Under the pieces are notes generated by a model that did not search any database, was not told the origin of the DNA, and was given only the letters and a program-made list of their open reading frames with translations. Shown here one piece after another: positions 50-16,103 of a DNA stretch of 19,889 bases. The position numbers and the translations under genes were made by a program. The DNA is from a virus: the UHGV virus genome UHGV-0130218; one strand, written 5' to 3'. Every line of letters starts with the position of its first letter. The first letter of the stretch is position 1.

Positions 50-349
50 CTACTTCGAAGAAAGGGCAAGTTTGCGCACAGTCGTCAGGAAATTGAATGG
101 GGTTGAATCCCACAACTCAGGTGAAAAATCAAATCCATACCGGCTTTTGAACTCCTCATCCAGCCTGTCTCCGTAAAGCACAAGGAAAGAATCGACCTCT
201 TCGGCTAACTCTTTTAACATCCAGTCGGGAGCTGTTTTTTTATAGAGTTCAACAGTGCCTTCAATAGTATCCTCTCCCTCATTTATGAGGTCATGATCCT
301 GATTGAAATAACCCTGAATCAGCTGATCAAGATGATAGAAACTTTGCAT
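50..349 (-). CDS. Putative immunity protein of the adjacent toxin-like ORF
   Basis: 99-aa ORF that starts 12 nt downstream of the toxin-like ORF on the same strand. Small, acidic (D/E-rich), no catalytic motif, as is typical of immunity partners of nuclease toxins. Family not assignable by eye. Confidence 0.45.
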   Translation of the reverse strand: MQSFYHLDQLIQGYFNQDHDLINEGEDTIEGTVELYKKTAPDWMLKELAEEVDSFLVLYGDRLDEEFKSRYGFDFSPELWDSTPFNFLTTVRKLALSSK

Positions 350-361
350 AATCCACCTGTC

Positions 362-1207
362 CTATGGGGTCGGGAATGCTGTAAGGATATAGTAAGGTTT
401 TCCGTTATACTCTTGCAATTCGATAACAATCCTCACTCCACGCATGCTGATGCGCTGTGTGCTGCCTCGCGTGAATCCATACCCAACCTCCTGACCGGCA
501 GAATAATTGATGGTAAGGCGTCCACCAATTTTACCACCTCCGAGTAACGATTTGATATTTGCCCGGTTAAGATAGACCGCCCTCGAAATAACATTTTCAG
601 CAACATTTAAGTCTTTAAACGTTGAAGACATAACAAGTCGCTTATTTTTCTCGAATCGGGCAAGTAACTCACTGTCAGTTTTTCCGACATGATTTGCGAG
701 TGTATGGCCGCCGGGTTTAAGACCCGTAACTGATTCATGCTGGATCAATTTGATGCGACCAGCTTTAATTGCAGCTACACGGACGGCACCAATAGCAGCT
801 GCAAATCCAAGCGGAACGGCTATATCAACTGTCATGCCGATATTGAGGGCGGTGTCTTCATCGGCACCAAGTTCTCTTGCCGCGCTTACAGCAATTTGCC
901 AGGTGGCTGAGCGCGTATCACGACCGGTTATTAGCTGTCTGGCTGCGCTTTGAACAGCGTCAAGACTATGTGCACCAACAACCACACATCCCGCTTTCGT
1001 TAGTCCTGTTGGTTCTGGCGCGATACATAGTGCCGTGGCACCGGCCATTTCTACCGCTCCGAGTAAAACGCCAAGTCCCCCCAACAGTCGGTTACTCAGC
1101 GTTTCCGCCTCTGTAATGCTTTTATCTGAAAGCACCGCCGCCAGCTGTACCGGTGACATAACAACGACCATTCCACCTTCTTCCATAACAGTATCCCATC
1201 CCTCCAT
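362..1207 (-). CDS. Putative polymorphic-toxin-like protein (Gly/Ala-rich pre-toxin segment ending in TG plus C-terminal nuclease-like domain)
   Basis: 281-aa ORF. N-terminal part has a Gly/Ala-rich hydrophobic segment (LLGGLGVLLGAVEMAGATALCIAPEPTGL...AARQLITG) resembling pre-toxin TG domains. C-terminal ~130 aa carries GGHTLANHVGK (His-x4-His-x2-Lys), reminiscent of EndoU/RNase-type toxin domains. No secretion or delivery domain is present, and the upstream frame closes 17 codons before the ATG. Confidence 0.5.
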   Translation of the reverse strand: MEGWDTVMEEGGMVVVMSPVQLAAVLSDKSITEAETLSNRLLGGLGVLLGAVEMAGATALCIAPEPTGLTKAGCVVVGAHSLDAVQSAARQLITGRDTRSATWQIAVSAARELGADEDTALNIGMTVDIAVPLGFAAAIGAVRVAAIKAGRIKLIQHESVTGLKPGGHTLANHVGKTDSELLARFEKNKRLVMSSTFKDLNVAENVISRAVYLNRANIKSLLGGGKIGGRLTINYSAGQEVGYGFTRGSTQRISMRGVRIVIELQEYNGKPYYILTAFPTP

Positions 1208-1824: not shown

Positions 1825-2043
1825 ATGTTTCACTGGCCGTTCTGCAAAACCAGCGCGCATTCCCGCACCAGTCGGTATCTGTCCGATAACGTCAAACAGC
1901 GCTATCACCAGTGCATGAACATAGAGTGCTCGGCCACGTTCCGCACGCTTGAATCCATCGACGGGGTTATTCGTTCACCGGCAACAGAGCCGGTCATCCC
2001 TGCACCCGCACCGGCGGCCACCGTTAACCGTGCCGGTGCGTAA
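1825..2043 (+). CDS. ogr: Ogr/Delta-family zinc-finger late-gene transcription activator (P2/P4 type)
   Basis: 72 aa. MFHWPFCKTSAHSRTSRYLSDNVKQRYHQCMNIECSATF matches the Ogr/Delta signature (P2 Ogr as I recall it: MFHCPLC...RTSRY...RYHQCQN.NCSATF). RBS ggagga lies 8 nt upstream. The first Cys ligand position is W (TGG). Confidence 0.85.
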   Translation: MFHWPFCKTSAHSRTSRYLSDNVKQRYHQCMNIECSATFRTLESIDGVIRSPATEPVIPAPAPAATVNRAGA

Positions 2044-2505: not shown

Positions 2506-2754
2506 ATGTATGATCAGTCTTTCAATCCGCGCACACTCTCACGATGTTTCAAACCTGAGGATTTCCATAAAAATAGAGCATTAAGTCTAGACAGTGTTCG
2601 AGAAAAGACTATTAACTCGGCTATCGAAAGATATAAGGATGGGTTCTTGGGTTATAATTTACGCTCATCCGTTTTAAGAGGGAAAACAGTATATTGGGCC
2701 GATGAGTTAGCTGATGTATTGGTCTTGAGGAAAATTAAAAAAAAATTTATCTAA
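2506..2754 (+). CDS. Reverse transcriptase, N-terminal (fingers) segment; frame ends inside an A9 tract
   Basis: ATG with RBS agga 8 nt upstream. 82 codons encoding ...GYNLRSSVLRGKTVYWADELADVLVLRKIKKK, consistent with RT motifs 1/2. Stops at 2752-2754, just after the A9 run at 2737-2745. Confidence 0.6.
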   Translation: MYDQSFNPRTLSRCFKPEDFHKNRALSLDSVREKTINSAIERYKDGFLGYNLRSSVLRGKTVYWADELADVLVLRKIKKKFI

Positions 2755-2845
2755 GCTATATCAATTAAGATTACCTTCTCGAACAAAGATTGTTGATACA
2801 TTAAAGGTTTTTTTATCAGAGTGTTCACAGTATAAAATATACAGA

Positions 2846-3769
2846 TTGGATATATTTTCATTTTATGAATCTTTCGATAAAAACTATATATTTAATAAAA
2901 TAGATGGATTGGAGCGGTTAGAGCTTAAAACAAAGCAGGTTCTAAAGGAATTTCTTTATTCATTCTATCTGAATGGTGGGCAAGGAATACCAAGAGGATT
3001 GTCAATCAGTGCATACTTGGCAGAGTTACTAATGTATGATTTCGATAATCAAGTGAAAGATAACCACTCTGTTTTTTATTATGCTAGGTATGTAGATGAT
3101 ATAGTTATTGTCACTAGTGGTTACGAAGATAGTGATGCTTTTATTGAGAATGTAAAATCAAACCTTCCAAATGGATTGCGTTTTAATGAAGGGAAGAAAT
3201 ATTATATTAGCGATTTAATTCCAAAATCTTCCAAAAAAACAAACCGTGCACCCTCCAAAAAATTGTTATCCTTTGAATATTTAGGGTACGATTTTAGCGT
3301 GGGAGATAAAATTGAAGAGTGCAATATAAGAGGATTCTATAGGGTAATTGAAATTGATCTTGCACATGCAAAGGCTAATAAAGTAAAAAGTAGAGTGATT
3401 TATTCGATTGTTGATTTTAATAAAACCAATGATTTTGAGTTGCTATGTGAAAGACTAAAATTCCTGTCCACAAACTTTAGTGTTTTAGATTCAGATAGAG
3501 TATTAAAACGGTTGTCGGGCATTCATTTTAATTATCCTCTTATTGATGCTAAATCTTCTAAGCGCCTTGCTGAACTTGATGTGTTTTTAAGAAAGGCTGT
3601 ATTATCATCTAGTGGTAAGGTTTTCTTTGATTTTCATGCGAACTTAAACCAATGCAAAAAATATCGATTACTTAAGATTAGTTTTGTTAGAGGCCATGAG
3701 AAACGTCATTTTTTTCATTATTCAGCTTCAAAAATGATGAAAATTCAAAGGTGTTGGAAATATGTCTAA
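2846..3769 (+). CDS. Reverse transcriptase, palm/thumb segment (the frame is open from 2729, so it is likely continuous with 2506-2754 after a +1 shift)
   Basis: RT motif A YRLDIFSFYESFDKNYIF, motif B QGIPRGLSISAYLAELLMYDFD, motif C YYARYVDDIVIV, motif D/E LRFNEGKKYYIS. No ATG or GTG precedes these motifs in this frame; the ORF track uses TTG at 2846. AT-rich. Confidence 0.8.
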   Translation: MDIFSFYESFDKNYIFNKIDGLERLELKTKQVLKEFLYSFYLNGGQGIPRGLSISAYLAELLMYDFDNQVKDNHSVFYYARYVDDIVIVTSGYEDSDAFIENVKSNLPNGLRFNEGKKYYISDLIPKSSKKTNRAPSKKLLSFEYLGYDFSVGDKIEECNIRGFYRVIEIDLAHAKANKVKSRVIYSIVDFNKTNDFELLCERLKFLSTNFSVLDSDRVLKRLSGIHFNYPLIDAKSSKRLAELDVFLRKAVLSSSGKVFFDFHANLNQCKKYRLLKISFVRGHEKRHFFHYSASKMMKIQRCWKYV

Positions 3770-5714
3770 AAAAAAGGAAGTAAGAGTTAATAAAAAAGAT
3801 TTTAATAGGGTTTTAGTTACTGAAACCATACCCTATGAAACGCCTATAATAGTGTCCAATGATGGTTTTTATAACAATGTAGTTAAATATACAACGGCCA
3901 ATGATACTGCTAAGGTATTGATTCAAAGAATAATTCTAGGGGAAAAGAAGAAAGGTAGGTATACGATTCCCTATGTTTTTAAAATTAATAAAAATGAGAC
4001 GGAGTTTCGACGTTTAGCCTTTCCACACCCCATATCTCAGATTGAAATGCGGGATTTTTATCTCCATTTTAATCAAATGATGATCAATTTTTGTTCCCGT
4101 AGTGATTTTTCTATTCGGCGACCGGTGAAGGTTGCAAGTACATATTATTATAAGAACTTATTGGAAGACAAGAATTTATATAAGAGAGGGCCTGTTGATA
4201 CCGACAAAAATGAACTATTAACTCGGCATGCTTCTTCATATTTTGGCTATCACGGATATGATCGCCTGTATAAGTTCTTTATGTCTAATGAGTTTATTGA
4301 CCTTGAGCGTAAATATAATACGCTATATACATTAGATGTTTCAAAATGTTTCGACAGTATCTATACTCATTCAATTTCTTGGGCTGCAAAAACCAAGACT
4401 TTCATTAAAGGGATGTTAGCTAATAAATCATTAAACTTTGGTGATGCTTTTGATAAATTAATGCAACGTTGCAACTTTAACGAAACCCATGGTGTAATTA
4501 TCGGTCCAGAAATTAGTCGAATATTCGCTGAGGTTATATTTCAAAAAATAGATTTAAATGTTCAGTTTAAATTAAATAATATCGAGCCATCGATACGTAA
4601 GGGTATCGATTATGATATTCGCCGTTATGTTGATGATGTTTTTATTTTTGCTAAAAATGAAACTAATGCCGAAATTATATATAAGATTTACACTGATAAA
4701 CTGAATGAATATAACATGCATATAAATTTGGGTAAAGTAACAAAAAACACTCGACCTTTTATCACAGCAAAAACGCAAATTATACATCACGTCAATCAAA
4801 GAATGAATTTATTTATTGAATCTTTTCTTGGTTATGATGATGAAATGAAATTAATCGCAAAGCCAATATATAACAATAGGAAGTTAGCTAACAAATTTAT
4901 AGATGAGGTGAAAATAATATGTGCTGAAAATAATGCGGGATATGGTGAGGTTGCTTCTTATATTGTGTCGGCGATTTTTGAAAGAATTAAAAGATTAACT
5001 TCTTCAGTTAATCAAGTCGAAGATAAAGATATATACAATGCAATGTATGTTTTGCTCCATATTTCATTGTTCTTTTTCAGAGTTGCTCCGTCTGTTAGTT
5101 CATCATATAAATTGGCTTCAATACTTATCGTGGCTCTCAGATATTTTAAGGCTAAAGTACCATCATACAGTGAGCTTATAGCATCATATGTTTATTTTGA
5201 AATTGAAGACTTTCTTAAATCTGCTAATACTAGCAAAGTAGCCATAGATAATCTAATTAGTCTTGAGGCATATAATATTATGTATGTTATAGGTGAGCTA
5301 GATCAAGAACGATATTTATCAAAACAGTTGATTGAGAACATTTTTAGTGAAGTTGATTCTTATTTTGATATAGTGTCCTGTCTATATATCGTAAAGGATA
5401 AGAAAGTTTATAATACACTTAAAAATAAAATTATTGATATTATTAACTCCAAGTTAATGTCAAGTGATAGTATTTTGGATTATAGTGAAAAGGCAATGCT
5501 CTTTTTGGATGTTATGTCTTGCCCTTATATTGATTTAAAATGGAAAAAAATATGGTTGAAATCAACTTTAAAAGAATTGCAAGAAGCTACTCCTAACAAT
5601 GAAAAAATAGATAGTTTTATCAGTTATTCTGTAGCGAATCCTTGGTTTGTGGACTGGAGTAATGTCGATCTTTTGAATTTCTTAGAAAAAAAACAATTGA
5701 AAAAAGCCTATTGA
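3762..5714 (+). CDS. Reverse transcriptase with long alpha-helical C-terminal extension (UG/Abi-type, defence-associated RT-like)
   Basis: 650 aa. Motif A YTLDVSKCFDSIYTHSI, motif B HGVIIGPEISRIFAEVIF, motif C RRYVDDVFIFAKN, followed by ~300 aa of predicted helical sequence. Its ATG overlaps the upstream RT stop by 8 nt, indicating translational coupling. AT-rich. Confidence 0.85.
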   Translation: MSKKKEVRVNKKDFNRVLVTETIPYETPIIVSNDGFYNNVVKYTTANDTAKVLIQRIILGEKKKGRYTIPYVFKINKNETEFRRLAFPHPISQIEMRDFYLHFNQMMINFCSRSDFSIRRPVKVASTYYYKNLLEDKNLYKRGPVDTDKNELLTRHASSYFGYHGYDRLYKFFMSNEFIDLERKYNTLYTLDVSKCFDSIYTHSISWAAKTKTFIKGMLANKSLNFGDAFDKLMQRCNFNETHGVIIGPEISRIFAEVIFQKIDLNVQFKLNNIEPSIRKGIDYDIRRYVDDVFIFAKNETNAEIIYKIYTDKLNEYNMHINLGKVTKNTRPFITAKTQIIHHVNQRMNLFIESFLGYDDEMKLIAKPIYNNRKLANKFIDEVKIICAENNAGYGEVASYIVSAIFERIKRLTSSVNQVEDKDIYNAMYVLLHISLFFFRVAPSVSSSYKLASILIVALRYFKAKVPSYSELIASYVYFEIEDFLKSANTSKVAIDNLISLEAYNIMYVIGELDQERYLSKQLIENIFSEVDSYFDIVSCLYIVKDKKVYNTLKNKIIDIINSKLMSSDSILDYSEKAMLFLDVMSCPYIDLKWKKIWLKSTLKELQEATPNNEKIDSFISYSVANPWFVDWSNVDLLNFLEKKQLKKAY

Positions 5715-5880: not shown

Positions 5881-7058
5881 ACAAAATTCCCCCACCACAG
5901 CATCAGCTCTACTCTTTGTTGCAAATAGACAGAGCGGTTGTATGCTCTTCGTACCTCATTCTTATCAGAATGAGCTAGTGCTGCTTCAATGACGTCTGGA
6001 TTAAATCCTTCTTCATTAAGCGTCGTGCTAGCTATCGAGCGTAAGCCATGAGCAACTAGCTTCCCATTCCAGCCAACTCTTTTTAGTGCAGCATTAGCCG
6101 TCTGGCTATTCATAGCTTTCTTAGGGTCATTTCTACTTGGAAAAACATGATCACGGTGCTTACTGATGGGTGCCATGATCTCAAGAATATAAAGCGCCTG
6201 AGGAGATAGAGGAATTAAATGTTCACGCTTCGCTTTCATCCTTTCGGCGGGGATTGTCCAGAGTTTTGAGTCGAGATCGATCTCTTCCCACCTGGTACCG
6301 GAGGCTTCAGAAGGGCGTACAAGGGTTAGGAGTTGCCACTCAATTAGACAGCGAGTAGGAACAGACAGATTTGACATAACCAAAGAACGCATCAGACTTG
6401 GTAATTCTTCTGGTCTAAGCGTAGGCATATTTTGCTTTTTAGGCCTCTCAAAAGCCATTCCAACTCCTGAGGTTGGGTTTGCGTCAATCAAGCCGGTATT
6501 TACCGCGTAAATCATAATCTCATTAATACGCTGTACCAGACGACGAACAGTCTCCAGAGCACCACGCGCTTTGATTGGCTCTAATGCTTCAACAATTGTT
6601 CTGGCCTTAATCTCCTGAACAGGTATCGTGCCTATTGCAGGGAAAACGTCCTTGTCTAAAGATCGCCAAATATCTTTTGCATAGTCTTCGGTGACGCTTT
6701 TGCTCTTCATTTTGAACCAGTTGGTGGCCACAGTTGAGAAAATGCTATCCAGCTCTATCTGACGCTTTTCTGATGCATGCTCTTGTTGCTGTTGTGGATC
6801 CATATCTAGCGCGAGCATGGTTAAGTGCTGGTCGCGTATCTGACGAGCTGCTGCGAGTGTAAAGGCAGGGTATGAGCCGAGACTCAAATTTGTGCGGCTG
6901 CTGCTTCCCGGTCGTTGATAACGGAAGCGCCAGAGTTTTTTGCCGGAGGTTTTTACGAGTAAGAACAGGCCATCACCATCATGCAGGGTGAAGTCTTTTT
7001 CGCGGGGTTTTGCTTTGAGGATTTCGTTGTTAGTGAGGGGGCGTGTAATGCGCGCCAT
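5862..7058 (-). CDS. int: P4-type tyrosine integrase
   Basis: 398 aa. N-terminus LTNNEILKAKPREKDFTLHDGDGLFLLVKTSGKKLWRFRYQRPG is typical of P4-family integrase arm-binding domains. The C-terminal catalytic region has HGLRS...LAHSDKNEVRRAYNRSVYL (R, H-x-x-R, Y). RBS aggga upstream. It is adjacent to a tmRNA 3' fragment, as with CP4-57 intA. Confidence 0.9.
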   Translation of the reverse strand: MARITRPLTNNEILKAKPREKDFTLHDGDGLFLLVKTSGKKLWRFRYQRPGSSSRTNLSLGSYPAFTLAAARQIRDQHLTMLALDMDPQQQQEHASEKRQIELDSIFSTVATNWFKMKSKSVTEDYAKDIWRSLDKDVFPAIGTIPVQEIKARTIVEALEPIKARGALETVRRLVQRINEIMIYAVNTGLIDANPTSGVGMAFERPKKQNMPTLRPEELPSLMRSLVMSNLSVPTRCLIEWQLLTLVRPSEASGTRWEEIDLDSKLWTIPAERMKAKREHLIPLSPQALYILEIMAPISKHRDHVFPSRNDPKKAMNSQTANAALKRVGWNGKLVAHGLRSIASTTLNEEGFNPDVIEAALAHSDKNEVRRAYNRSVYLQQRVELMLWWGNFVENKRG

Positions 7059-7079
7059 GTCTGGATCCCTTCCATAATT

Positions 7080-7127
7080 GGTACACGTTTAATGGACCAC
7101 AGTATAGCGTGTACCTAAACGTGTACC
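7080..7127. promoter_or_regulatory. Cluster of three 8-mer repeats (CGTGTACC) upstream of int; candidate integrase/regulator binding sites
   Basis: GGTACACG at 7080-7087 (inverted) and CGTGTACC at 7108-7115 and 7120-7127, between the int start and the att core. Confidence 0.3.
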
Positions 7128-7171
7128 TATTTTCTCTGGATTTAACCGGATGTTCTCGGACAACGCCAGAC

Positions 7172-7210
7172 ACAAAAAAGCCCGCAGGGCTTGCGCCGTG
7201 CGGGCTTTCA
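7172..7210 (-). terminator. Intrinsic terminator downstream of the tmRNA 3' fragment (minus strand)
   Basis: Minus-strand reading: GCCCGCA-(12-nt loop)-TGCGGGC followed by TTTTTTGTG (plus coordinates 7205-7172). Confidence 0.5.
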
Positions 7211-7262
7211 GGACTTCATCGGATGACTCTGGTAATCACCGATGGAACATTTTGGTGGAGCT

Positions 7263-7300
7263 GGCGGGAGTTGAACCCGCATCCGTAACCAGCTATCTCA
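7263..7300 (-). other. ssrA: tmRNA (ssrA) 3'-terminal fragment serving as att core (not a complete gene)
   Basis: Reverse complement of 7263-7290 is GCGGGTTCAACTCCCGCCAGCTCCACCA, which matches the T-arm, acceptor 3' strand and CCA end of enterobacterial tmRNA. Sequence beyond 7300 is AT-rich coding DNA with no tag-peptide region. Confidence 0.7.
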
Positions 7301-7311
7301 TTGAAAAATAA

Positions 7312-8172
7312 TCAAATAAATTTGTTTTTCCATGTCTCGTATCTTTTACGTATCCTTTGAAGTAGTAATGCCGTCCAGCTAAGGCCGTGAGAGAATGTTA
7401 GATTAAAAGTTGCTTCCACTGTATCTCCACGTATTGAGAATCTATTTATCCGATATTCAGTAGAAAAAAACTCTTTTTTTGTTGTTCCAGAGATTTCTTC
7501 ATATTCAATTAATAAAACAGGCCCATCTATTTGAGTTAACATATTTTCATGGAGGCTGATTTTATCCAAGAGGTAGTTAGATAATAGTGTCGGTATTAAT
7601 GTGGGGATGTGAAGATTTACCTCTTCTTTGTTAACGCTCCAAGGGAGAATATAAACAACATCAGAATATTGTTCTTCATGAGAATACCATTTGGATTGAC
7701 CAAAACCTAATAATGAAATGTAAGTGTGACCTTGTTTGTCTAATTGATAACAGTATTCATTAGCCATCATGGCTGCTTTGTAACCTTTGGTGTCAAAGGT
7801 ATGTTCATCGTCTAGTTTTTTTATTTTATTTAACAAAAAATGTTTTTCGTAATTGAATATCCATTGGTATTTGAATTTCAACGCTGGGCCTAGACCAACA
7901 TTTAATATTGGCAGGGTGGGATTGTTGTTTTTTGATATAGCATCAAAAACACCTTTGTTTACTATTTTTGTTTTATCAATTTTTATTTTTACATCTTTAG
8001 TGATTATCTGTACTTTGTTTGATAACTTTCTTTGGATAACAGTTTGCCTTATAGCTAAATAAGCAGCAATTGCTGATAAAGCACTTGCTGTCAAACCACC
8101 ATATCCGAGCCATGCGGGGTCTGCCATATCGAAGTATTCCTGCCTTATAACAAGGCAGGAATTATTTCTCAA
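7312..8172 (-). CDS. Hypothetical membrane-anchored protein; AT-rich moron between the lambdoid int and the att core
   Basis: 286-codon ORF with a TTG start; a more likely ATG start at 8127 gives MADPAWLGYGGLTASALSAIAAYLAI, a predicted N-terminal transmembrane helix. The ~240-aa soluble domain has no motif I recognise. Strongly AT-rich compared with the neighbouring int. Confidence 0.6.
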   Translation of the reverse strand: MRNNSCLVIRQEYFDMADPAWLGYGGLTASALSAIAAYLAIRQTVIQRKLSNKVQIITKDVKIKIDKTKIVNKGVFDAISKNNNPTLPILNVGLGPALKFKYQWIFNYEKHFLLNKIKKLDDEHTFDTKGYKAAMMANEYCYQLDKQGHTYISLLGFGQSKWYSHEEQYSDVVYILPWSVNKEEVNLHIPTLIPTLLSNYLLDKISLHENMLTQIDGPVLLIEYEEISGTTKKEFFSTEYRINRFSIRGDTVEATFNLTFSHGLSWTALLLQRIRKRYETWKNKFI

Positions 8173-9344
8173 TTCTTCACATTGTTCAAGGATGTGATCG
8201 ATGAGTTGTTATCATAATCTTTCAAATAGCGTCCGTAATGACGAAAGAGCATCTCAGGTCCTTTGTGGCCCATCTGCGCAGCCAGCCAAAATAAGTTTAC
8301 ACCGCAGCTTATCATACGTGTGGCGAATGTATGCCTTGTCTGATAAGGATTACGGTACCTGATACCGGCTTTCCGGAGCGTAGGAACCCAGGCTTTTTTC
8401 CTAATGGCGTCCGCGCTGGCCCATGGCTTGTTTGTCTTCGGATCTTCAAAGACACAACCATTCTTCATGAAGCTAAAGGGCTTTTGTTCGTTTAGAGCAA
8501 TCATCGCTTCCTCGGTTAACTCAACCTTGCGTGTTCCTGCCTTCGTTTTCGTACCTTTCGTCACGCCAGAGACGCTGGCGCTCTGTACATGAGCCGTCTT
8601 CTCAACGAAGTCAATGTCCCTCCAGCGTAGTGCGCAAAGTTCCGAACTGCGTAGACCTGTCTGAAGCGCAAATCTGAATAAGTTCTCCCATTGCTTATTA
8701 CCCGCTGATTTTAACAGCGCGCTTACCTCTGCTGGAGATAGTGGATCAACAATATAAGTACTTTCCTCGTCACTTTTTTTGCTTTGATATCGTGAAGCTG
8801 TTACCTGTGACACTGGATTAATTTGTAAAACACCATCAGTTACAGCTTCATCAAGTGAGGAACGAAGAAACGACAACTGGTTACGTATCGTCTTCAATGT
8901 TGTTTTCTGATTCTGAATCCATGTTTTTAATGCTGCTGGCGTTAACTCACTGGCCGGGAAAATGTGAAGTTCAGACAGTGCGCTACGGCATTTTTTATAC
9001 CCGCCAATGGTGGAGGGGGAAAGATTCCTCGTTTCGCAAATCTTCAGGTACTCATCAAGATACATTTTCACTGTTTTCCCGGTCGCAGCATTACCGAAAA
9101 TTTTTAACCTCACCGAACGAGGGAAATATTCAGCATAGATAAATGTTCCACGCTCGATTTTGTTGTGGATTTCGCCGAGCATACGCTCGGCATATTTAAG
9201 GTTTTTGTTGTTCACTTCTAGATTTGAAAGGGGTTCTCTGCATTTCACCCCCTTGTATGTGAACGTAATATTGATGGTTTCACCACTGCTGTGCTTCCTG
9301 ATGGTTACACCACGTGGGAGTTTAGGCGATTCTTTCGTGCCCAT
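8169..9344 (-). CDS. int: Phage tyrosine integrase (lambdoid type)
   Basis: 391 aa. C-terminal catalytic region RNPYQTRHTFATRMISCGVNLFWLAAQMGHKGPEMLFRHYGRYL (R...H-x-x-R...Y). Its start overlaps the xis-like ORF. Confidence 0.9.
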   Translation of the reverse strand: MGTKESPKLPRGVTIRKHSSGETINITFTYKGVKCREPLSNLEVNNKNLKYAERMLGEIHNKIERGTFIYAEYFPRSVRLKIFGNAATGKTVKMYLDEYLKICETRNLSPSTIGGYKKCRSALSELHIFPASELTPAALKTWIQNQKTTLKTIRNQLSFLRSSLDEAVTDGVLQINPVSQVTASRYQSKKSDEESTYIVDPLSPAEVSALLKSAGNKQWENLFRFALQTGLRSSELCALRWRDIDFVEKTAHVQSASVSGVTKGTKTKAGTRKVELTEEAMIALNEQKPFSFMKNGCVFEDPKTNKPWASADAIRKKAWVPTLRKAGIRYRNPYQTRHTFATRMISCGVNLFWLAAQMGHKGPEMLFRHYGRYLKDYDNNSSITSLNNVKN

Positions 9345-9523
9345 TTTGCAACCTCACTAAGATCTATCCATCTCTCCTTAACGCCTTCAACCTTAAGCAC
9401 CTGCACCCCTTCACGCCAAACGCCGCGCTGTACACGCTTATTGATCGCATCTGGGGTTTCGCCAGTCTCTTTGCAATAAGTTGAGATGGGAACACAATCG
9501 AGGCTCAGCATATACTTCTCCAT
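9305..9523 (-). CDS. xis: Excisionase-like small DNA-binding protein
   Basis: 72 aa, basic. Overlaps the int start by 40 nt, the classic xis-int arrangement. Confidence 0.6.
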   Translation of the reverse strand: MEKYMLSLDCVPISTYCKETGETPDAINKRVQRGVWREGVQVLKVEGVKERWIDLSEVAKWARKNRLNSHVV

Positions 9524-15070: not shown

Positions 15071-15250
15071 ATGCGCGAAGTTAACCGAAGGTTCAAAGAC
15101 CACAGAGGGATCCCCGTTCGGGTTATCCGGTGGGAGCCAGAGACTCAACGAGTTATCTACCTGCGGGATGGTTATAACCACGAATGTTTCAGCCCGCTCG
15201 AACAATTTAAGCGCAAGTTTACAGAGTTAAAGGACGACCATGAGCACTAA
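15071..15250 (+). CDS. Small conserved phage protein (59 aa), below the ORF-track size cutoff
   Basis: ATG at 15071 with GAAGG upstream. Encodes MREVNRRFKDHRGIPVRVIRWEPETQRVIYLRDGYNHECFSPLEQFKRKFTELKDDHEH, a balanced protein-like composition. It overlaps the next gene start and lies fully inside the low-complexity 14850-15230 frame. Confidence 0.4.
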   Translation: MREVNRRFKDHRGIPVRVIRWEPETQRVIYLRDGYNHECFSPLEQFKRKFTELKDDHEH

Positions 15251-16103
15251 ATTAACGGGTTACGTTTGGGACGCTTGTGCCGCTTCTGGCATGAAGCTGT
15301 CCAGCGTTGCCATCATGGCGCGTCTGGCAGACTTCAGCAGTGATGAAGGGGTTAGCTGGCCTTCCATCGCTACCATTGCGCGCCAGATTGGTGCCGGTGA
15401 GAGCACGGTTCGCACAGCCATATCTCAACTGGAAAAAGACGGGTGGTTAACCCGTCAGCAGCGCCGTAAAGGCAACCGCAATGCATCGAACGTTTACCAG
15501 CTTAATGTTGCGAAATTACAGGCTGCTGCCTTTTCTCACCTGTCAGATTCTGACGCATCAAAATCTGATGCCTCAAAAACCGACGCGTCAAAATCTGAGG
15601 CATCAAAAAACGATGAAAAAGGCGGTTTTCACCCGTCAGAATCTGGGGGGGATCCGTCAGTAAATACAACTACTGATCCATCAGATAAAAAACATTCTTG
15701 TCCGGTTGCTGCGCAACCCGACCCTGTGGTGGTTATCACCGATCAGGCGAAGCAGGTTTTATCACATCTGAACAAGACCACTGGTTCACGGTATCAGGTC
15801 TGCAAATCGTCCTTGGAAAACATCCGGGCTCGCCTGGCTGACGGGTTTACGCCCGATGAGCTGCTGTTGGTGGTGGATTACAGCGTCGAGAAGTGGGGCG
15901 AGGATCTGAAAATGGCCGAATACCTGCGCCCAACAACGTTGTTTTTGCCATCTAAATTCCCAGGTTACCTGCAATCCGCAAATAAGTGGAACGCAGCAGG
16001 ACGCCCAGAACGACAGTACTGGGGCTCAATTCGTAAGCATGATCCGATGAAATTTGGTGGGCCAGATAAAGCCATCCCAGCTGGCTTCAGGGGAGCGAAA
16101 TGA
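15240..16103 (+). CDS. Replication initiator (lambda O-like; N-terminal winged-HTH, C-terminal phage replication-protein domain) with internal repeats
   Basis: 287 aa. N-terminal HTH-like segment VSWPSIATIARQIGAGESTVRTAISQLEKDGWL. Central (S/T)DASK pentapeptide repeats encoded by 15-bp tandem repeats. Position after cro/cII as for lambda O. Confidence 0.65.
   Translation: MSTKLTGYVWDACAASGMKLSSVAIMARLADFSSDEGVSWPSIATIARQIGAGESTVRTAISQLEKDGWLTRQQRRKGNRNASNVYQLNVAKLQAAAFSHLSDSDASKSDASKTDASKSEASKNDEKGGFHPSESGGDPSVNTTTDPSDKKHSCPVAAQPDPVVVITDQAKQVLSHLNKTTGSRYQVCKSSLENIRARLADGFTPDELLLVVDYSVEKWGEDLKMAEYLRPTTLFLPSKFPGYLQSANKWNAAGRPERQYWGSIRKHDPMKFGGPDKAIPAGFRGAK
15549..15608 (+). repeat. Four tandem 15-bp repeats inside the O-like gene; candidate origin iterons
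   Basis: tctgacgcatcaaaa / tctgatgcctcaaaa / accgacgcgtcaaaa / tctgaggcatcaaaa, in frame (coding SDASK-like repeats). Analogous to the lambda ori iterons, which lie within O. Confidence 0.5.

Follow-up and report, generated by a model that had tools for sequence, protein, structure and literature searches.

Williams is said to have described, in 2003, tandem arrays of islands at tRNA and tmRNA genes. In the Islander work, the regenerated target gene and the displaced fragment serve as the markers of an island's two ends, tandem arrays are recorded, and the tmRNA gene is the most enriched of the integration targets (PMC4383910). Tandem prophages are likewise expected where two phages share an attB (PMC8112680). 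At ssrA itself, excision of the CP4-57 type yields the delta-T357 allele and has been found to switch ribosome rescue pathways, and the same kinds of lesion have been tabulated for P4-type islands (PMC10107115). For the phage side, a 39-nt 'tmRNA pseudogene' and an attP are annotated next to gene 31, int and xis in the database record of LLS (PQ299149), a free phage.

Here we analyse a stretch of DNA of 19,889 nt, referred to throughout as the window, in which a 36-nt ssrA fragment lies between two integrases. We consider it probable, at roughly 85%, that this fragment is the displaced 3′ end of the gene at a hybrid att site, being both the attR of a lambdoid prophage and the former attL of a P4-type island. 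We propose that the prophage spans 7253 to beyond 19889 and that the P4-like island spans 7252 to just beyond position 1. The fragment is an ordinary and well-documented type of tandem integration scar, of which this locus provides a fresh instance.

The exact part of the ssrA copy comprises 28 nt at 7253-7280 and runs, on the minus strand, from the T-stem to the CCA; the plus-strand letters (TGGTGGAGCTGGCGGGAGTTGAACCCGC) give the ssrA 3′ end in reverse-complement form, and the minus strand from 7280 to 7253 reads GCGGGTTCAACTCCCGCCAGCTCCACCA. This core is identical to the final 28 nt of the annotated E. coli ssrA and to the Enterobacter ssrA 3′ end (28/28 nt), it is common to the attP of LLS, E. 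coli ssrA and the window, and it retains the wild-type T357 (CAGCTCCACCA). Similarity to ssrA extends to 7288, where BLAST homology to E. coli stops, with six of the eight extra positions matching (mismatches at 7281 and 7286), so that the full ssrA-like stretch is 36 nt long and 34/36 identical. This extension derives from the phage and belongs to no functional gene. Related prophages (L036, L039, L042-L044) share the T at 7281 in their P arms, and intact Enterobacter and E. coli ssrA have a C at the equivalent position. Read on the minus strand from 7300 to 7160, the order is an AT-rich, phage-like stretch, the extension, the core, a trailer and a terminator. ARAGORN found no tmRNA or tRNA in the window, and no Rfam family matched it at the gathering score; in E-value mode the tmRNA model scored 27.8 bits at 7253-7379 (minus strand), under its 47-bit gathering score, which is as expected for a gene fragment. 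These results bear out the statement of an earlier note on this DNA that only a terminal piece of ssrA and no complete tmRNA is present, while the CCA end that it placed at 7263 lies in fact 10 nt away, at 7253-7255.

In a three-way alignment of the window with LLS and with E. coli ssrA, the window agrees with LLS rather than with ssrA upstream of the core; past the CCA and one further A, it agrees with the E. coli ssrA-int spacer rather than with the P′ arm of LLS. The right arm and core are about 88-91% identical to the free phage from window position 7252 onward, and LLS is thus a free element that carries the same fragment within its attP. The left arm and core (6701-7288) are about 92% identical to a junction between intact ssrA and a P4-type int that is matched in 748 of 5426 E. 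coli genomes (L002 is an example), the region matched there taking in an "integrase domain-containing protein" as well as the 3′ end of the intact ssrA. By alignment, then, the site reads as the P arm of the lambdoid attP, the core, and the downstream arm of a P4-type attL, and the boundary between the two mobile elements is fixed at 7253-7288, which matters little beyond correct annotation.

The earlier note had proposed that two elements sit in tandem at ssrA, with a P4-type int in the orientation of the fragment on one side, and the int-proximal end of a lambdoid prophage on the other. Both flanks are as it described them (Table 1), and the assignment of the two junction arms to different elements upholds the tandem integration. 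The two elements are not both mobile, for the P4-like "satellite" is decayed and has no second copy of the core; the array is tandem by history. [quoted passage not shown]

Table 1. Features of the hybrid att site and of the two flanking elements (window coordinates)
Feature	Position	Strand	Remarks
Primase C-terminus remnant, 63 aa	1333-1524	-	matches last ~60 residues of phage DNA primases
Ogr/Delta-like regulator ORF	1825-2043	+	P4-like satellite core trace
Drt3a, two frames	2506-2754; 2846-3769	+	split; profile positions 1-80 and 114-416
Drt3b	3762-5714	+	intact, 742 bits
P4/CP4-57-type tyrosine integrase, 398 aa	5862..7058	-	Pfam Arm-DNA-bind_3, Phage_int_M, Phage_integrase; NCBIfam NF007246, 580 bits
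Candidate arm-type sites of P4-type Int, GGTACACG x3 (within 7080..7127)	7080-7087; 7108-7115; 7120-7127	+; -; -	
Intrinsic terminator	7174..7208	-	GCCCGCACGGCGCAAGCCCUGCGGGC then U6; stem 7180-7205, U-run 7174-7179
ssrA 3′ trailer with hairpin	7209..7252	-	CAUCGGUGA...UCAUCCGAUG, predicted fold; trailer letters AAAUGUUCCAUCGGUGAUUACCAGAGUCAUCCGAUGAAGUCCUGA
Common att core	7253..7280	-	T-stem 5′ strand, T-loop, T-stem 3′ strand, acceptor 3′ strand, CCA; terminal A at 7253
ssrA-like extension of lambdoid P arm	7281..7288	-	TTACGGAT, against TTTCGGAC in ssrA
Int-proximal (P) arm of lambdoid attP	7289..7400	-	aligns with LLS attP P arm; overlaps 3′ end of cargo ORF
Candidate arm-type sites of lambdoid Int, direct repeats AAGATACG and AGGATACG	7338..7356	-	spacing 11 nt
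Cargo ORF, 271 aa, homologue of LLS gene 31	7312..8127	-	phrog_7259 match (PHROG of unknown function)
Tyrosine integrase of lambdoid prophage, 391 aa	8169..9344	-	Pfam Arm-DNA-bind_2, Phage_integrase
Lambdoid excisionase	9305..9523	-	phrog_2917 (annotated excisionase), E = 5.7e-42

The arrangement could have arisen as follows. A P4-like element would have entered ssrA. The regenerated gene would have retained a trailer and a terminator, and the int of the element would have come to lie about 200 nt downstream of it. A lambdoid attP carrying a copy of the ssrA 3′ end would then have recombined with this regenerated ssrA, and a functional ssrA would now be completed by the phage's own copy, beyond the window at the other end of the prophage. 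The former 3′ end, together with the trailer, the terminator and the P4-like island, would thereby have been displaced about 40 kb downstream, so that it came to lie beside the lambdoid int and the cargo ORF. The functional ssrA of the strain should accordingly be one that phage DNA completes, about 40 kb from the fragment.

We infer that the P4-like element came first because it is both the more decayed and the distal one; its primase is reduced to a 63-aa C-terminus, its Drt3a is frameshifted and it has no attR. The reversed order, in which the P4-like element arrived after the lambdoid phage and took the displaced fragment, and not the functional ssrA, as a secondary attB, seems to us unlikely. 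It would draw on the fact that the fragment keeps the full T-arm and 3′ end, the apparent target of P4-type integrases at ssrA, and on the opposite order of the two families in E. coli K-12, by which either can come second. However, decay has gone much further in the P4-like element than in the prophage, newcomers normally hit the intact gene and so come to lie proximal to it, and in E. coli the same type of P4 int directly adjoins an intact ssrA.

With one genome taken per species, we surveyed 69 loci, from Enterobacterales, Pasteurellaceae and Aeromonas among others, whose integrases are related to the lambdoid Int, with 58-92% protein identity. In at least 65 of them, int is followed after 0.1-2.5 kb by an ssrA 3′ fragment on its own strand, and in 23 a P4-type int on that strand starts about 200 nt after the fragment. 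Two of the loci (L048 and L057) carry the window's own subtype of P4-type int, with 88-89% protein identity and a near-identical spacer. An intact, co-oriented ssrA at the other end of the prophage was seen in five relatives: in two short remnants, L026 (Silvania) and L070 (Enterobacter), ARAGORN places an intact tmRNA, int and the fragment within 10 kb, and in three IMG/VR proviruses (L176, L188 and L191) an intact tmRNA abuts the opposite, gp30-side end of the phage. In these three proviruses, the homologue of LLS gene 30, which belongs to the other side of attP, has an intact tmRNA directly behind it on the opposite strand, as predicted. These comparisons indicate that, in this family, int usually lies beside the displaced fragment, with the regenerated ssrA at the opposite end of the prophage; the contact between the fragment and the int-proximal prophage end in the window is thereby explained. 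They also indicate that ssrA is used repeatedly by both the lambdoid and the P4-type family; how often is illustrated by 23 of 69 species representatives, together with the reversed order in K-12.

It is very improbable that the window holds no integration junction at all, with the fragment belonging, as a 'tmRNA pseudogene', to the attP of a phage genome that is free or circular, or with the whole window forming one composite element. The free phage LLS has the same pseudogene, and in four loci (L031, L040, L043 and L082) the fragment is followed by an LLS-type P′ arm; in the window, however, the DNA to the left of 7252 diverges completely from the P′ arm of LLS and matches the chromosomal arrangement of ssrA, trailer, terminator and P4-type int, and the source contig runs on into Enterobacter chromosomal genes. 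That the likeness to ssrA stems from chance or low complexity can be set aside, since 28 of 28 nt agree, the 28-mer occurs once in the window and 200 shuffles gave no match even with up to 3 mismatches allowed, and the position of the fragment is conserved in at least 65 related loci.

Returning to the hybrid site as a junction of two elements, we consider the lambdoid side. As in an LLS-like temperate phage, the int-xis module, the immunity region (cI, whose product has an S24 peptidase domain, cro and a cII-like gene) and the replication gene O follow one another in lambda order; methylases and an antirepressor are also retained, and a Q antiterminator follows just beyond the window in the source contig. 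Within the O-type replication gene (15240-16103) we also observed four or five tandem 15-nt units (TCAAAATCTGAYGCN) at 15543-15617 on the plus strand, which are probably the iterons of a lambdoid ori. In its P arm, the motif A[AG]GATACG matches the window twice, both matches being the direct repeats of Table 1, which fall within the 3′ end of the cargo ORF. Comparison of 24 loci and the LLS attP shows a repeat pair similarly far upstream of the core throughout, with a sequence that is lineage-specific (e.g. GGAGCCG twice, or ATGCACG followed by ATGCAC). Repeats that are lineage-specific and yet equivalent in position are typical of arm-type Int sites, and we infer that these 8-mers would bind the lambdoid Int.

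The 271-aa cargo ORF lies between the lambdoid int and attP and has a hydrophobic N-terminal stretch; searches against Pfam, PADLOC and NCBIfam gave no hit for it. Most relatives have no gene at this position, and their fragment follows int after about 115 nt. The position looks like a slot for cargo (moron) genes.

A complete set of packaging and morphogenesis genes was not found in the source contig outside the window, where two chimeric ORFs occur (L011, 18366-20920). One joins the central part of a Glyco_hydro_19 endolysin to the final ~90 positions of the GpA terminase nuclease domain, and the other joins the first 26 aa of gpW to the portal protein. These chimeras point to a deletion of cos, terS and most of terL, so that the prophage is probably packaging-defective. 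On the map of LLS, the distance from portal to attP is about 22 kb, compared with the approximately 18.5 kb of source contig that remain.

The P4-like side has preserved its integrase, the DNA of which is about 92% identical to that of int genes adjoining ssrA in E. coli, and little of its core. Of the core genes of a P4 satellite (alpha primase-helicase, delta/ogr, sid, psu and cos), the only traces left are the Ogr/Delta-like ORF and the primase tail. The octamer GGTACACG is present in three copies in the window where 0.2 would be expected; the copies sit in the int-proximal arm of the P4-type attL, the block is also found upstream of the closest P4-type int genes (L048 and L057), and the copies may bind the P4-type Int. 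Neither pattern and regular-expression searches nor short-word BLAST revealed an attR or second core above chance for this element in the window and in the 9 kb of source contig that cover the P4-like block and the adjacent chromosome. The island is thus an eroded remnant which, having lost its attR, is stuck in place.

Two further gene groups were noted within the remnant. Beside the P4-type int is a DRT type 3 defence pair (2506-5714, plus strand), in which Drt3b is intact and Drt3a is apparently frameshifted. An orphan CdiA-CT toxin tip, RNase A-like (362-1207, minus strand), is paired with a CdiI_2 immunity gene (50-349, minus strand), and the pair, spanning 50-1207, is bracketed by 30-nt direct repeats (11-40 and 1324-1353) that are 87% identical.

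The block of identity common to attP, attB and attR extends from the T-stem 5′ strand to the CCA plus 1-3 nt, and both integrases appear from these alignments to use the same stretch of ssrA. Among relatives, P-arm variants (ACGGG, GCGAG) lie 5′ of the T-loop, and the acceptor 3′ strand is where delta-T357 and the larger deletions of the displaced, downstream side are located. Because these polymorphisms bracket TTCAACTCCCGCCAGC, which comprises the T-loop and the 3′ T-stem, the lambdoid crossover would fall within it, on the assumption that the regenerated gene has the wild-type sequence. Excision of the prophage by lambdoid Int and Xis should still be possible through recombination between the far-end junction and the present site and, since the fragment in the window keeps T357, excision should leave a wild-type tmRNA 3′ end. 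This prediction differs from excision of the CP4-57 type, which leaves delta-T357 (PMC10107115).

We also observed that delta-T357 or larger deletions of the acceptor 3′ strand are present in many displaced fragments behind the lambdoid int family (L016, L022-L025, L038, L043, L044, L050, L053, L078, L036, L047, L064 and L076). Such lesions are the ones that PMC10107115 tabulates for P4-type islands. In contrast to these lesioned relatives, the fragment in the window is wild type.

Downstream of the core, an intrinsic terminator had been proposed at 7205-7172, which agrees with the stem and U-run in Table 1. This strong terminator is conserved behind ssrA in E. coli Santai, K-12 and many other loci, and the trailer likewise recurs behind ssrA in K-12 and many other loci. 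Both are also present at L050 without any P4-type int, and their origin could be either native or element-supplied. In diverged genera (L016, L022, L024, L026, L070 and L072) the hairpin of the trailer seems to have been kept through changes on both strands, as in the example of CATCGGTGA/TCATCCGATG against CATCAATGG/CCACTTGATG. This suggests a conserved processing element of pre-tmRNA that integrating elements supply as well. As a separate observation, Rfam gives a partial match of 33.5 bits, against a gathering score of 376 bits, between 7174-7262 (minus strand) and the Salmonella sRNA IsrM; the alignment is limited to 7 nt at the start of the model and to the terminator region at its 3′ end, and the terminator of IsrM may be derived from an ssrA att site.

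We mention as a doubtful idea that the hybrid site acts like lambda sib, as a retroregulatory switch for the expression of Int and the cargo ORF, with integration swapping the 3′ end of the int-cargo transcript. If this were so, transcripts of int and the 271-aa ORF would in the prophage reach the tRNA-like ssrA fragment, the trailer hairpin and the ssrA-type terminator, whereas those of the free phage would reach the P′ arm instead. A scan for sigma-70 promoters across 6900-7500 gave no hits.

As for the host, the window is 100% identical to gut-metagenome contigs in ENA, including one of 156 kb (L003), in which the P4-like block ends about 150-350 nt past window position 1 and is followed by a DeoR/PfkB gene and then an ABC permease gene. 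The DeoR/PfkB flank is 96.8% identical to Enterobacter intestinihominis (L050), where the gene lies just downstream of an ssrA fragment, which places the array at the chromosomal ssrA locus. Megablast of the chromosomal flank against the 5426 E. coli genomes returned no match and the lambdoid int module was absent from complete E. coli genomes, so that E. coli was rejected as host; the host is probably Enterobacter. The exact junction sequence had no match in IMG/VR, in which a provirus with a 99%-identical int (L085) has, judging from its locus coordinates, apparently been trimmed just short of the fragment.

Of the systems described, the closest to the prophage is LLS, which agrees with the window in the order xis, int, 271-aa cargo ORF, P arm and ssrA 3′ copy, has the same core and shows about 88-91% nucleotide identity over the region from int to the early genes. 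After the core, LLS continues into a phage P′ arm with a terminator of its own and gene 30, whereas the window continues into the ssrA trailer, the terminator and the P4-type int, and it is for this reason that we regard the copy in the window as integrated. The late genes of the source prophage are, at the DNA level, unrelated to those of LLS and contain deletions.

On the other side, CP4-57 of E. coli K-12, in which ssrA is followed by intA, resembles the window in having a co-oriented P4-type int about 200 nt downstream, with a near-identical trailer hairpin and terminator between the ssrA 3′ end and int. The P4-type int of the window is of a different subtype, with about 58% protein identity to the integrases behind K-12-type arms; its match of about 92% in DNA is to another int subtype of E. 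coli. Moreover, CP4-57 abuts an intact ssrA and has an attR with a delta-T357 core (PMC10107115), whereas in the window the upstream partner is only a fragment, the core keeps T357 and there is no attR.

K-12 also presents the two families in reverse order, the attR of CP4-57 (CGCCAGC-CCACCA) being the known delta-T357 allele (PMC10107115). In the K-12 derivative ER1709 (L193, 22590-22790), a stretch of about 170 nt that directly follows this attR is homologous to the P′ arm and terminator of LLS, and it seems that an LLS-type prophage left a scar in K-12 on the distal side of CP4-57. Since P′ arm DNA of this type stands behind the CP4-57 attR, it is conceivable, though doubtful, that in many enterobacteria the ssrA 3′ flank and terminator are entirely element-supplied and serially replaced. 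Compared with the tandem island arrays of Islander (PMC4383910), the window differs in that its distal element has lost the far-end repeat, only the proximal one keeping a fragment, and agrees in the displaced 3′ fragment, the two serial integrases and the tmRNA gene as target.
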